Below, piece after piece: positions 7,780-60,588 of a stretch of DNA of 64,000 nucleotides. This DNA comes from a virus. Lineage: Duplodnaviria; Heunggongvirae; Uroviricota; Caudoviricetes. Below the pieces are notes generated by a model. The model made no database searches. It worked only from the letters and a program-made list of their open reading frames with translations, and had not been told where the DNA came from. The stretch lies in the IMG/VR virus record IMGVR_UViG_3300029702_000002; one strand, written 5' to 3'. Both the position numbers and the translations under genes were made by a program. Position 1 is the stretch's first letter, and each line of letters starts with the position of its first letter.

Positions 7780-7879
7780 GTGTTTTTCCTAATGCTTAAA
7801 CAAGTTGTTTTCTTATTGGCTTTATTGTGATGTGGCATAAAAGGGGAGCAAGCTAAACGTAAAGGTGCAAACTCTCTAT

Positions 7880-7916
7880 TTCGGTCAACGAAACACAAGG
7901 GCCATTTGGCCCTTGT
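7880..7916 (-). terminator. putative rho-independent terminator
   Basis: Hairpin ACAAGGGCC-ATTT-GGCCCTTGT (7895-7916) followed on the minus strand by a U-rich stretch. Confidence 0.45.
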
Positions 7917-8265
7917 CATTAACACGTTGCTTTACGGACTAGCGGATAAGCGAAGTAGATCGCCAGACCAATGAGGACGCCATCAGAAATGACAGACATC
8001 ATCTTTCCCGTAAAATCCACCAACACCGCCATCACCAGAAGAGCAATGACGGTCACAAGCCGGAATCTCTCAAGCATTAGAGATAAGCATCCAGTGACAA
8101 CTGAAGCGCCTGTGCGATCTTTTTCAGGGCCAGCTCTTCTTGTTCGCCAATACCGTCTTGGTCGGCAATATCAAGGCACAGACACAGTACATCTACTGCA
8201 TCATTAGTCCCGGCCACATCAGCCAGCTCACGTAAAGCCTGGGCATTAGCGCGGCGCGGTGAGGC

Positions 8266-8502
8266 TTAGTATTGAGCACGGATATTGGCGCTCATTTGGG
8301 CAATCTCACCAGCAAACGGAGAAAACGCAGGCAGAGCTGCAATTGTTTTCTCAAGAATGGAAATTTCCTTTGCGTCGCATGTGCCATCGGCATAGGAGAT
8401 CATGTACGCGCCCCACACGGTGGCTTCAACCGCATCTCGGTTCTCCATTTTTTTGACCTCGATAACAGCTTTACGAGTTTTCTTTTTGAATAAACCTAAC
8501 AT
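8266..8502 (-). CDS. hypothetical protein (78 aa); frame continues protein-like past an in-frame TAA
   Basis: ORF track; downstream in-frame 61 codons (~8080-8265) read ...DIADQDGIGEQEELALKKIAQALQLSLDAYL. Confidence 0.4.
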   Translation of the reverse strand: MLGLFKKKTRKAVIEVKKMENRDAVEATVWGAYMISYADGTCDAKEISILEKTIAALPAFSPFAGEIAQMSANIRAQY

Positions 8503-8595
8503 GTGCTTTCCTTTTGTTATTTGTTAAAACAAGTTGTTTTCTAGTTACATGAATTGCTTACGAAAAGACGGTCAATGCATATGCACTAACAACCG

Positions 8596-8793
8596 TCAGA
8601 AATAACCAAGTACCGAACCGACTGGAAAAACAAAAATCCCAACAACACGAGCCAAGGTCATACCAGCCTGAAACTGGAGATCACCAGAGCAAACGAGTTT
8701 TACAATGTTCGATACCCAACCGGCGGCCATGAGAGCTATGAAAGCCAGAATCGCCAGCCAAGTTTTTCCAAAGTGATTTGAAAACCAGTTCAT
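8596..8793 (-). CDS. small membrane protein (65 aa, two hydrophobic helices)
   Basis: ORF track; hydrophobic segments; ATGA coupling with 8790..9041. Confidence 0.45.
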   Translation of the reverse strand: MNWFSNHFGKTWLAILAFIALMAAGWVSNIVKLVCSGDLQFQAGMTLARVVGIFVFPVGSVLGYF

Positions 8794-9041
8794 ACAACCG
8801 CCTTAGTCACAGCATGATCCTGAGTAACTGGATGAACTTGAGGTATCGCATCCACCGTCATCCCATCCAGAGTGACAGGACGCTCTACTGGAGTGGTGGT
8901 AATTGTCGTCGACGGAGGTGTGGTGATGGATGAACCCGGCATCAAAAGGCTCTGGCCGGCTGGAACGGCTACCGTCGCCAGTGAAACTATAATGAGAACG
9001 TAGGCCATTGGTTTCAGCCTCTTTCTTTGAAAATTTTCCAT
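8790..9041 (-). CDS. small secreted/membrane protein (83 aa, Thr/Pro-rich)
   Basis: N-terminal hydrophobic segment MAYVLIIVSLATVAVPAG; coupled to downstream gene. Confidence 0.4.
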   Translation of the reverse strand: MENFQRKRLKPMAYVLIIVSLATVAVPAGQSLLMPGSSITTPPSTTITTTPVERPVTLDGMTVDAIPQVHPVTQDHAVTKAVV

Positions 9042-9297
9042 TCGAACTGTCCTTGTTGTTTTTCTCCTTCACTAAAGGCCGTGTACTTTTCGCTTCGCGT
9101 GAAGAACCAGAGGTAACAATCGCCCCCACGTTCGCAACAACTGACGCTTGCTTATCTAAACGTTCATTCAGCAACCGAACGGCAGTCTCTAGTTCATCAA
9201 GACGTGACAGAACACGACCGCTAAATAATTCGGCCAAAATTTGACGTAGTGAACGAGGACGTTTAGTTGCAGAAGTGAAATAGGTTTGACGTGCCAT
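8803..9297 (-). CDS. hypothetical protein (164 aa), overlaps 8790..9041 in another frame
   Basis: ORF track; N-terminal half protein-like, C-terminal half low-complexity; possible frameshift or overlapping genes. Confidence 0.3.
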   Translation of the reverse strand: MARQTYFTSATKRPRSLRQILAELFSGRVLSRLDELETAVRLLNERLDKQASVVANVGAIVTSGSSREAKSTRPLVKEKNNKDSSNGKFSKKEAETNGLRSHYSFTGDGSRSSRPEPFDAGFIHHHTSVDDNYHHSSRASCHSGWDDGGCDTSSSSSYSGSCCD

Positions 9298-9442
9298 GTG
9301 GACTCCATCCAGTGTCAGAAAGAGTTGCGGCTGGCGATTGCCAGCCGCCTTTCTCGTTCCATCCTGGAACTGTGTCTTACCGACACATTGTCATCCTGAC
9401 GCCGATAAGATACATGATTTAAAATGATAGGTAAACACTTAC

Positions 9443-58149: not shown

Positions 58150-58255
58150 CTGGTAGGTAGTTACTTACTTATCACAATGAGCGGATGATAGCGACTGGTG
58201 GCAGTTTTTGGAAGTGGAAACGGAAGGGAGTTGTTCTGGTGGTGTCTTTTAAAAG

Positions 58256-58312
58256 ACCTGCTTCCGTATATATTTAATAAGTTACTTATTATTTATATAT
58301 ACAGAAGCAGGC
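58256..58312. repeat. ~60-bp palindromic element (copy 2 of 2)
   Basis: CCTGCTTCCGTATATAT ... ATATATACAGAAGCAGGC, near-identical arms to 10958-11016. Confidence 0.6.
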
Positions 58313-58422
58313 ATAACTTGTCGTCTTAGACGCCCAGAAGCTCTACACTTTGAGCCTGTTAAATTGATTAAAAACTTATGTGTAAAATAGAACGCATTAG
58401 TCAGTAGCAAAGAGATGCAATA

Positions 58423-59190
58423 ATGGACGATTTATCGGTATACGCGAGATCATTGGATAAGGCTAAATACTATGTTTACTGTCTCTATGATACAGAAGAC
58501 AAGATGAAAAGACCGTTTTACATAGGAAAAGGCAAATCGACTCGTTGTCTCGATCACATCAAGTATCCCGATGACTCTCCCAAATCCATGCGGATCAAAG
58601 AACTTTTGGCTAATAAAAAATTAGGCATAGATATACTTCGTCATGGTATGGATGAAACCACAGCCAAACTTGTTGAGGCGACATGCATCGACCTTATGGG
58701 GGTCGGAGAGCTTACGAATAAGGTACGAGGAAGTGGTTCCATGATGGGCAGAATATCACTGGACGCCTACCATCACTTAGTGCTGCAAGAGGAAACTGAA
58801 ATTGCTCCTGAGCACGCCGGTCTTGCCTTCCTGCTAAACAGCACCTACAAGTCAGGAATGTCCGCTCTGGCATTATATGAAGCTACGCGTGGCGTATGGG
58901 CAAAGGTTCCAAGAGACGAGAATCTCAAATATGCCTACGCTACATATGGTGGGCTGATAATGGAAGTTTATCAGATTGAATGCTGGGTCAAAGCCGGTTC
59001 TCAGCAGTACTTTACAAGGGATATAGCTCTTGGCCCCGACACAAAACGTTATGAATTTGTTGGCAGAATAGCCGATGAGCATATTAGAAAACTGTATGTA
59101 GGCAAATTAATCAAGAAGCCACCAAGCTACGGTAGCCCTTTTGTGAAGGTTGGGGTGGTTAGGACTGAACATAGTGTTAGCGCGGCATAA
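58423..59190 (+). CDS. GIY-YIG domain protein (free-standing endonuclease-like)
   Basis: YYVYCLYD ... FYIGKGK..R resembles GIY-(x10)-YIG with conserved Arg. Confidence 0.55.
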   Translation: MDDLSVYARSLDKAKYYVYCLYDTEDKMKRPFYIGKGKSTRCLDHIKYPDDSPKSMRIKELLANKKLGIDILRHGMDETTAKLVEATCIDLMGVGELTNKVRGSGSMMGRISLDAYHHLVLQEETEIAPEHAGLAFLLNSTYKSGMSALALYEATRGVWAKVPRDENLKYAYATYGGLIMEVYQIECWVKAGSQQYFTRDIALGPDTKRYEFVGRIADEHIRKLYVGKLIKKPPSYGSPFVKVGVVRTEHSVSAA

Positions 59191-59242
59191 AGCTGACACT
59201 GTAGTTATGCATTGGCGCAATGTACGCGCCAATGCATGATTT

Positions 59243-59602
59243 TTAACCTTTCTTCATCAACTCTCGTTTGATTTCATCGGTACGCATCGTGACATCGGCA
59301 GCGGTGATCGCCTCATTCAATTTCACGATGTCCTCGATTTCCTGCGGTGACTTCTCTGCCAGATGGAAAATGGCTGCTCGAATCACGTCAGAACGAGTGA
59401 ACTTCTCGAAGCGAGGGATGAACTTCATCATCTCCAGCAGTTCGAAGTATTCGTCCTCCAGTGACATTGTGCGGCTTTTAATTTTCTCTTTGCCACGAGT
59501 CGGGCGTCCCTGTGGTCTGACTGGTTGGCGCAAAGGAGTTGTGTTCTTAGCCGGTGCATCAGGCTCTTTGCGCTTTGCTAGGTCACCCATTTTCATGGAC
59601 AT
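59243..59602 (-). CDS. small partition / centromere-binding protein (ParG-like)
   Basis: Basic disordered N-terminus, helical C-terminus; directly downstream of and coupled to parA. Confidence 0.5.
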   Translation of the reverse strand: MSMKMGDLAKRKEPDAPAKNTTPLRQPVRPQGRPTRGKEKIKSRTMSLEDEYFELLEMMKFIPRFEKFTRSDVIRAAIFHLAEKSPQEIEDIVKLNEAITAADVTMRTDEIKRELMKKG

Positions 59603-60270
59603 TATTCTTCTTCCTCCAGACTCAACAGATAATCTACAAATTCTTCAAACTCGGCTTCCGCCTTTTTGTCGCGCTCGCTACCGGTCATTTCAAAGATAGA
59701 ACGACCAGACTCTTCCGCATCATCATAGACGTTGCGGTTATATAGATTGACTGGCGCAGACTCGATTCCAAACGTCTCAACAATCTCTTTAGCCGCCAGA
59801 ATGCGAGACACTTGTGATGGCAAAGCCGGGCACTGGTTCATGACCGCGCGGACCTTCACTTTATCGTTTACATTGCGAACATTGTCGATAATAGGATCGA
59901 TGTCACGTAAAGATTTCAAATCACGACGCTTAGGACGCAGCGGGATAATGATAACGTCAGCCATCAGCATCGCTTGTCGCTGAATTTCGGAGTCGAAGCC
60001 ACCAGCATCTACCACTACAAACTCAGCTCTACCCTGAAGCGATTTTAGGTGCTTAATGATGTCATCCTGAACGTATGCAAAAGGAATCAGCTCCAGGTCT
60101 TCGTTCTGTCGACGGTCTTCACACCAGCTCGTTGTCGTGCGCTGAATATCTATATCGGTAATATAAACCTTCTTCTTCTTTTTGACTTTCAGGCAAACGG
60201 CAATTTGCTGGGCAACGGTGGATTTGCCAGGCCCGCCCTTTGTGCCGCCAACCACAAAGATCTTGGTCAT
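59602..60270 (-). CDS. parA: ParA/ParF-type partition ATPase
   Basis: Deviant Walker A GGTKGGPGKST; 222 aa. Confidence 0.85.
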   Translation of the reverse strand: MTKIFVVGGTKGGPGKSTVAQQIAVCLKVKKKKKVYITDIDIQRTTTSWCEDRRQNEDLELIPFAYVQDDIIKHLKSLQGRAEFVVVDAGGFDSEIQRQAMLMADVIIIPLRPKRRDLKSLRDIDPIIDNVRNVNDKVKVRAVMNQCPALPSQVSRILAAKEIVETFGIESAPVNLYNRNVYDDAEESGRSIFEMTGSERDKKAEAEFEEFVDYLLSLEEEE

Positions 60271-60588
60271 TGGAGAGTTCCCTTTGCGTATATAATTATC
60301 GTCTGAAACAACTTGTTTTCTTATATGTGATATAGCCTAAATGCCTACGGCTGCGGTGTAAAGGTTAAATGGTAGGTTGTGATTAACAATTGGCAAACAT
60401 AGCTTGTATTTGTCTGTTGAAAAAAGTAACAATGACCTCTATATTACAAGTACGGTGATATGCCGTACACAATTTGATAATGCACACGTAATGGGCTATA
60501 GCCTTTTAAAGTAATTTTTGAGTCGAAAACTCAGTTTGAACAGAGGAGATTGATGGCCTTCCTACATCACGGCCATCAGGAGGAATAC

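Follow-up and report, generated by a model that had tools for sequence, protein, structure and literature searches.

The stretch of DNA analysed here, hereafter the window, comprises 64,000 nucleotides of IMG/VR virus record IMGVR_UViG_3300029702_000002 (Caudoviricetes) and corresponds to the non-structural two-thirds of an SSU5-like phage-plasmid, with nearly all of its genes on the minus strand. It is approximately 98% identical, in antiparallel orientation, to Escherichia phage Cyrano (pLF82, OV696614) and approximately 77-79% identical to Salmonella phage SSU5. Our subject is a short palindromic element, the AAACAA-N-TTGTTT dyad, which the initial annotation of the window had listed at no fewer than seven regions ahead of minus-strand genes. 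All seven regions named there carry it, at coordinates within about 8 bp of those first given: the exact dyad (AAACAANTTGTTT) occurs five times in the 64 kb where 0.03 matches are expected, and none of 100 shuffled sequences contained five or more. Two further copies have one mismatch, giving seven with no more than one, and an additional copy lies in reversed orientation (Table 1).

In all seven cases the dyad lies in intergenic DNA, which makes up approximately 11% of the window under the permissive set of open reading frames (ORFs) that we used (P ~2e-7). All seven share one orientation relative to the downstream minus-strand gene and are centred 23-42 nt upstream of its ATG, and on the gene strand they align without gaps as A(C/T)TA(A/G)G-AAAACAA-N-TTGTTT-AA. 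A 22-nt weight matrix built from these sites separated them cleanly from the rest of the window, with scores of 26-35 bits for the seven and 12.9 bits for the next best position anywhere in the 64 kb. No copy with zero or one mismatch was found in coding sequence of the window, so the dyad is not similarly frequent inside genes, an outcome that would have counted against the initial annotation.

At the Cyrano and SSU5 sites the dyad belongs to a gap-free module in which a T-rich block, GCC, a -10-like hexamer, AACACCA, the dyad and a Shine-Dalgarno sequence follow one another in a shared order; the part around the dyad reads A(C/T)AAG-AAAACAA-N-TTGTTT-AAG. The hexamer sits at -25 to -20 from the dyad centre, with A2 and T6 present in 10 of 24 sites, and in the early-region copies outside the window it often takes the form TGnGATAAT (e.g. 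TGCGATAAT, TGAGATAAT and TGGTATTAT). The -35 regions at dyad promoters are poor. With the start placed approximately 7 nt after the hexamer, the dyad centre would fall near +13 of the predicted transcript. The reversed copies are located differently: a forward copy follows 51 bp downstream of each, which puts them near -38, directly past the terminator of the preceding gene. In the window, the reversed copy is near -38 of a promoter that retains half of the dyad (again relative to a predicted start), and the geometry of this pair (window 3263/3212) recurs in Cyrano (93120/93171) and in SSU5 (88325/88376).

We scanned the complete Cyrano and SSU5 genomes for the dyad and found approximately 14-18 copies in each. 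The Cyrano set consists of 12 gene-proximal copies, two in tandem before terS and two reversed, and the SSU5 set matches; beyond the window, at 93-98.5 kb, five of the Cyrano dyads stand each before one of a series of small genes without assigned function. No dyad was found in either scan inside the 28-kb structural (late) block (Cyrano 0.1-29 kb). The tandem dyads, which also lie outside the window, are 25 bp apart (Cyrano 50-135, SSU5 60-135) and are followed by a GC-rich hairpin and a short T run; their position, together with the hairpin, directly before the small terminase gene suggests regulated entry into the late operon.

Over 34 sites, each arm position (-6 to -1 and +1 to +6) holds 1.4-2.0 bits of information, against 0.05 bits for the central one; that is, two-fold symmetric arms surround an unconstrained central base, as expected of a dyad operator. 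The arms are under purifying selection: in 11 orthologous Cyrano/SSU5 pairs the left arm is 96% identical and the right arm 91%, compared with 27% for the central base, 82% for the -10-like hexamer and 45-72% elsewhere in the flanks. Alignments of further relatives show the nrdB dyad retained in SSU5, pHCM2, Y. pestis pMT, a K. pneumoniae plasmid and a Cronobacter plasmid, the last two having an extra copy approximately 25 bp downstream, and missing from the three most divergent relatives aligned. The parA and dnaB dyads are retained in divergent Klebsiella lineages (L135 and L144). A K. oxytoca relative carries a perfect 17-bp palindrome (GTAAACAA-N-TTGTTTAC), and several of its promoters have the -38 copy only; besides relatives without the dyad, two variants of it can be distinguished, AGAAAACAA..TTGTTTAAG and GTAAACAA..TTGTTTAC. 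When viral contigs were scanned with the exact pattern AGAAAACAANTTGTTTA, 120 loci were recovered, and those with multiple copies were almost all SSU5-like. The single matches are chance occurrences in AT-rich contigs, and the scan returned no unrelated family that would point to a binding protein.

An LF82 transcriptome from an overnight lysogenic culture provides normalised counts per Cyrano gene, with a median of 9.8 (PMC9928086, S1 Table). Genes behind a dyad were near background in this data set, at 5.7-25.5 counts apart from parA: CYRAN_58 (5.7), CYRAN_110 (6.7), CYRAN_85 (7.0), CYRAN_87 (7.1), CYRAN_101 (7.5), CYRAN_47 (7.8), CYRAN_106 (12.2), CYRAN_105 (12.8), nrdB (12.9), dnaB (21), CYRAN_111 (25.5) and parA (50) (PMC9928086). 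The ParB-family genes of the element were likewise silent (5-9.5 counts; PMC9928086). Several of the dyad promoters contain extended -10 elements, which should suffice for the host polymerase. A bound repressor is the simplest explanation for the silence of the dyad genes, although an absent activator is also possible. The initial annotation had suggested that the dyad may mark a temporally co-regulated gene class. Co-regulation agrees with an element that is promoter-associated, strongly conserved, absent from coding DNA and from the interior of the late block, and followed by genes near lysogen background, whereas the temporal part of the suggestion is one that we only infer.

We favor, with moderate confidence, the possibility that the dyad is an operator for a putative dimeric regulator encoded by the element itself, and that the genes behind it form a co-repressed early, replication and partition regulon. 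With most copies near +13 and others near -38, the placement of the dyad favours a bound protein that represses over an element that confers promoter specificity. In a plausible scenario, a symmetric and probably dimeric protein would bind AAAC-N5-GTTT within (A/G)(G/T)AAAACAA-N-TTGTTTA(A/C), contacting AAAC and GTTT approximately 9 bp apart. The bound operator would block RNA polymerase binding or escape, with polymerase occluded at +13 and, where a second copy is present, at -38, and the 51-bp spacing (about five helical turns) might allow the two copies to cooperate. Some 14 dispersed host-polymerase promoters could in this way be held off together in the plasmid-prophage state, or else shut off in lytic growth, and the regulon would take in the early small genes, dnaB, nrdB, cobT, parA and entry into the terminase operon.

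Several considerations weigh against this operator model: (i) the early-region copies outside the window have stronger -10-like hexamers than the seven sites inside it, of which only one has A2 and T6 together at the exact hexamer offset, and at the three sites within 1-20 kb a generic sigma-70 scan yielded no -35/-10 pair that passed its threshold; (ii) the +13 position rests on a predicted transcription start; (iii) A-9, G-8 and A-7 of the left flank are conserved asymmetrically over the 34 sites, reversed copies included, which a simple symmetric dimer leaves unexplained; (iv) a site near -38 could also serve activation, and silence in the lysogen could equally reflect a missing activator and (v) the proposed binder is represented by candidates only, two small winged-helix proteins among them not being expressed in the lysogen and the lysogen-expressed ones having only weak fold evidence.

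Candidate binding proteins were compared by their Pfam/PHROG matches, by how far they are expressed in the lysogen and how well they are conserved, and by whether they co-occur with the dyad. The most coherent of them is a protein of 119 amino acids (aa) whose gene directly follows parA. This gene is annotated in Cyrano as a putative RelE/ParE toxin and its product matches no Pfam family; its location behind parA, together with an N-terminus that is basic and disordered and with weak RHH_1 hits among remote homologues, suggests a ParA partner, possibly of the ribbon-helix-helix (RHH) type, rather than a toxin. The family is narrow, as an exhaustive HMMER search recovered only 18 representative homologues among 1.84 billion proteins. 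A profile search of Protein Data Bank (PDB) sequences with the 119-aa protein returned nothing meaningful, its AlphaFold model had a mean pLDDT of 63 and no strand, Foldseek found no match for this model, and hhalign against ParG gave a probability of 0.1.

A specific version of the operator model follows from this candidate, namely that the dyads are at once the dispersed centromere and the operator of the type Ib partition system, bound by the 119-aa protein, so that parA would be autoregulated and plasmid segregation would be tied to silencing of the early lytic, replication and packaging-entry promoters. We regard this as possible and hold it only tentatively. Consistent with it, the dyad fronts the parA operon in every motif-bearing lineage (the window, SSU5, L135 and L144), and the 119-aa protein is 93% identical between Cyrano and SSU5 and is expressed in the lysogen (89 counts against the median of 9.8; PMC9928086). 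The family keeps a stretch, (K/R)SRT(M/I)S, from 100% down to approximately 35% overall identity, and in two remote homologues this region is covered by RHH_1 matches below threshold (E = 0.005 and 0.11). The most distant homologue (L143) reads KGRMVSM instead and has no dyad before parA. Losses point both ways: in the Pectobacterium plasmid Drgb1, parA is split, an insertion interrupts its dyad and none of the other dyads survives, yet the plasmid keeps an intact homologue of the 119-aa protein with a near-identical stretch. It also counts against a partition role that an RHH fold is unsupported by Pfam, AlphaFold, Foldseek and hhalign versus ParG, and that only one dyad precedes parA, with no array of repeats nearby, whereas type Ib centromeres are normally arrays beside the operon. 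If this version were true, the partition protein would both segregate the plasmid prophage and silence phage genes, a direct link between the plasmid and phage lifestyles.

Three other readings of the dyad were considered. It could be a positive-control or promoter-specificity element through which a phage-plasmid activator switches on a temporal class of promoters lacking a good -35, and the poor -35 regions, the copies near -38 (close to where class II activators classically bind), the silence in the lysogen and the fact that the two winged-helix candidates are off there would all fit. We nevertheless judge it unlikely: most copies, including all seven in the window, are centred near +13, past the -10-like hexamer, a position from which activators do not usually act, and several of the promoters have an extended -10 (TGnGATAAT) and should need no activation. 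A role in the mRNA leader, where the dyad would be a site beside the Shine-Dalgarno sequence for a translational repressor or chaperone (the FljA-like CYRAN_114 or Hfq), seems to us very unlikely. Gene-proximal copies do lie in the predicted 5' leader, often abutting the ribosome-binding site (TTGTTTAAGGAG), FljA is reported to act on fliC mRNA, and the family encodes a FljA-like protein that is absent from dyad-less Drgb1. However, self-complementary arms with a free centre are useless in single-stranded RNA, a hairpin with a 1-nt loop being impossible, and the reversed copies past terminators, the -38-only copies and the tandem copies lie outside leaders. Folding of the leader RNAs at dyads gave -1.9 to -4.8 kcal/mol (z -0.4 to -2.0), i.e. 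ordinary and inconsistent folds, none stable or shared, and an Rfam search of the window returned two tRNAs only and nothing at dyad sites. The lack of an RNA fold or Rfam match, arms that cannot pair over a 1-nt loop and the existence of reversed, tandem and -38-only copies together argue for a function at the DNA level. We give least credence to the idea that the dyad is the site of a conserved Enterobacterales host protein, by which the element would plug into a host regulon; the motif is indeed unchanged across Escherichia, Salmonella, Klebsiella, Cronobacter and Yersinia elements, but the multi-copy loci among viral contigs are almost all SSU5-like, the related element from Pectobacterium has lost the motif, and we know of no E. 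coli transcription-factor consensus that it matches, though no search aimed at one was made.

Among the remaining candidate binders, a 71-aa putative winged-helix protein (CYRAN_37 homologue) co-occurs with the dyad and has no homologue in Drgb1. CYRAN_37 is at background in the lysogen (6.4 counts; PMC9928086), and such silence would fit a lytic-phase shut-off rather than lysogenic silencing. The FljA-like CYRAN_114 is a further candidate and is likewise missing from Drgb1. CYRAN_45, an XRE repressor expressed in the lysogen, was rejected as the binder: it belongs to an integrase island that is absent from SSU5, which keeps the dyads, and different repeats lie upstream of its gene. CYRAN_123, a winged-helix protein encoded before terS, is disfavoured by a putative recognition helix that is unchanged in dyad-less Drgb1. 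CYRAN_117 is disfavoured as well, being 58% identical between Cyrano and SSU5 despite identical dyads and having in its own promoter region not the dyad but the second, longer palindrome described below. A promoter for a phage-encoded RNA polymerase or sigma factor was set aside, as the annotations of Cyrano and SSU5 contain neither gene.

There is precedent for the operator model, under which the dyad set would be a phage/plasmid operator regulon, a type already known. In P1 immunity, the C1 repressor has many genome-dispersed operators, which are asymmetric 17-mers (ATTGCTCTAATAAATTT). Like P1, the present element is a plasmid prophage with a dozen or more copies of one short site over promoters of replication, recombination and other non-structural genes, through which a single protein might keep many transcription units off, but its sites are 6-1-6 palindromes that do not resemble the P1 17-mer, and a C1-like protein was not recognised. 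Operators of the lac O1 type are centred just downstream of the transcription start, and the dyad is similarly placed, approximately 11-13 bp past the predicted start, with an auxiliary copy whole helical turns upstream (51 bp here) at some promoters; the sequence and protein family are unrelated, however, and the start in our case is a prediction. KorB of RK2, a ParB-family protein, has 12 O_B sites, TTTAGC(G/C)GCTAAA, which are 13-bp 6-1-6 palindromes. The dyad shares this architecture, the presence of about a dozen copies on one replicon and a putative partition-linked global repression, but it differs in sequence, the element's own ParB-family genes are silent in the lysogen (see above), and the dyad-adjacent partition system is of type Ib with a small non-ParB partner.

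Two partition systems offer parallels to the version of the operator model that involves the 119-aa protein. The N15 prophage has four dispersed centromere palindromes in lytic-control regions, bound by SopB of the type Ia SopAB system; it too is a phage-plasmid with palindromes among phage-gene promoters and possibly a link between partition and lytic expression, whereas the sites described here number approximately 14, are all in register with the promoter, and their binding by a partition protein is hypothetical. In the type Ib ParF/ParG system of TP228, ParG (PDB 1P94) has an operator, O_F, upstream of parF, with arrays of ACTC tetramers. Here as well a small ParA (222 aa, with MipZ, CbiA and ParA Pfam hits) is encoded ahead of a small protein whose N-terminus is basic and disordered, and the operon promoter contains a putative protein-binding site, but this is a single 13-bp dyad instead of ACTC arrays and similarity to ParG is undetectable. 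Operators of the 434/16-3 type are ACAA-N4/6-TTGT, with half-sites 4-6 bp apart, unlike the dyad, in which ACAA and TTGT are 1 bp apart. Membership in the P1 C1, lac-type, KorB O_B or N15 site families is not supported, as no consensus matches.

Phage-plasmids of the SSU5 type are frequent among Enterobacterales: probes of 701 bp (nrdA/nrdB) and 121 bp (dnaB promoter) each hit approximately 737 plasmid records, from Klebsiella, Escherichia, Enterobacter, Salmonella and others. Phage-plasmids are reported to carry resistance genes (PMC9600943). In the literature that we searched, there was no account of the dyad motif, nor of the circuitry controlling lysogeny and lytic growth in the SSU5 group. 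The interest of the dyad lies mainly in a widespread family of elements for whose control circuit this search found no account, and possibly in a partition protein acting as global silencer; if a partition protein does bind the dyad, the motif would explain how plasmid maintenance is coupled to phage silence. As a defined operator with approximately 14 copies per genome, the dyad could serve as a probe for pull-down of the regulator, and it provides a predicted regulon and promoter annotation across hundreds of elements.

Table 1. Dyads, related promoter elements and other features of the window (positions in window coordinates; 13-bp dyad positions in brackets)
Feature	Sequence	Position	Strand	Context
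Dyad, exact (7798-7810)	ATAAGAAAACAACTTGTTTAAG	7795..7816	-	25 nt 5' of ATG, gene 7210-7779 (CYRAN_87 homologue, function unknown); SSU5 orthologue at 81751
Dyad, exact (8527-8539)	ACTAGAAAACAACTTGTTTTAA	8524..8545	-	Upstream of TciA-like gene starting at 8502 (8077-8502, -; in-frame stop in window, 78 codons vs 141 in Cyrano)
Dyad, one mismatch (18759-18771)	ATAAGATAACAACTTGTTTAAA	18756..18777	-	Upstream of nrdB (17584-18726), directly past nrdA terminator hairpin
Dyad, exact (30212-30224)	TTAAGAAAACAATTTGTTTAAA	30209..30230	-	Upstream of DUF7238 gene 29770-30195, directly past terminator hairpin
Dyad, one mismatch (43782-43794)	ACTAGTAAATAATTTGTTTTCA	43779..43800	-	Upstream of CobT-like gene 41654-43762; weakest of the seven, SSU5 counterpart perfect
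Dyad, exact (57376-57388)	ACTAGAAAACAATTTGTTTAAA	57373..57394	-	Upstream of DnaB-like helicase gene 56016-57356
Dyad, exact (60306-60318)	ATAAGAAAACAAGTTGTTTCAG	60303..60324	-	Upstream of type Ib parA gene 59602-60270
Reversed dyad (3257-3269)	GGCAGAAAACAATTTATTTAAG	3251..3272	+	Directly past terminator hairpin, 51 bp upstream of half-site promoter 3203-3224
Promoter module, left arm only	GAAAATAACCACA ACTAGAAAACAAC GGAG..ATG	3203..3224	-	Upstream of gene 2560-3201
Decayed dyad, one base shorter		6168..6180	-	Upstream of DUF4942 gene 4467-6152; SSU5 orthologue (82474) perfect
Decayed dyad, left arm only		55961..55973	-	Upstream of primase gene starting at 55934
Candidate binder, 119-aa protein		59243..59602	-	Gene directly after parA; operon fronted by dyad
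Candidate binder, 71-aa putative winged-helix protein		50002..50214	-	CYRAN_37 homologue
Translation-initiation segment	AAGGAAAAACACATG	18724..18738	-	Example copy
Other copies of the segment	AAGGAAAAACACATG	Starting at 4403, 7777, 25779, 29712, 34787, 40140, 41556, 55932	-	
Second palindrome	GATAGGTAAGT-N3-ACTTACCTATC		-	Upstream of genes starting at 4405, 21149 (nrdA), 31321, 34789, 41558, 52012, 52844, 58149, 62849
XRE-type repressor (CYRAN_45)		44325-44711	+	In island not in SSU5
Integrase		44706-45809	-	In island not in SSU5
Island ORF		46060-46596	+	Cyrano counterpart has the element's highest lysogen RNA by far, ~7000 counts vs median 9.8

The initial annotation had coupled the dyad to a shared ribosome-binding segment, and here the two have to be taken apart. 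The segment, AAGGAAAAACACATG, is real, with three exact copies and six more with no more than two mismatches where 0.21 are expected; all are on the minus strand, and all nine are at the starts of ORFs (66-1172 codons), where AAGGAAAAACAC-ATG provides a Shine-Dalgarno AAGGA, a 7-nt spacer and the ATG. Its strict form accompanies the dyad at two genes only (7779 and 18726) and is missing from five of the seven dyad genes. As most genes with the segment are without a dyad, AAGGAAAAACAC-ATG is a genuine translation-initiation consensus that is separate from the dyad. The segment often lengthens to a unit of approximately 23 nt, AACCACAAAAGGAAAAACACATG (genes at 55934, 40142, 34789, 31321, 29714 and 25781, all on the minus strand), whose AACCACA part resembles the AACACCA that precedes the dyad, and this suggests a common start-site and leader design shared by promoters that have the operator and promoters that lack it. 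At other places the AACCACA leader and ribosome-binding site stand without a dyad, as would be expected if the dyad were an inserted control element.

A second, longer palindrome, GATAGGTAAGT-N3-ACTTACCTATC, is present approximately 25 times per genome in Cyrano and SSU5, in short intergenic gaps; its locations include gaps within the structural genes and the region of the divergent UvsW/ParB promoters. This palindrome is probably the element that the initial annotation had counted as the first of two upstream elements, and probably a second operator or promoter class. A hairpin at 43800-43840 on the minus strand, directly upstream of the CobT-like promoter, has an SSU5 counterpart at approximately 42690-42725, with compensatory changes between the two (Cyrano CTGCGCGAA..TTCGCGCAG, SSU5 CTGTACGAACAG..CTGTTCGTACAG).

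Some parts of the element differ between relatives. Window 44325-48200 is an island not in SSU5, within which GC content drops to 36% at 46-48 kb, and window 58321-59245 is without a Cyrano counterpart, a plus-strand ORF (58423-59190, 255 aa) standing in place of CYRAN_30. Drgb1 (L137-L139), a distant relative in which all full dyads are lost and parA is split, has an Hfq gene directly upstream of dnaB and also carries colicin-like genes, umuDC and a Shedu defence gene. CYRAN_114, encoded outside the window at Cyrano 100780-101301, is homologous over its full length to FljA, which represses phase-1 flagellin in Salmonella; it matches Pfam Flag1_repress (E = 1e-80) and, weakly, Hfq/LSM families. 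Its expression in the lysogen is moderate, and host flagellin could be its target.

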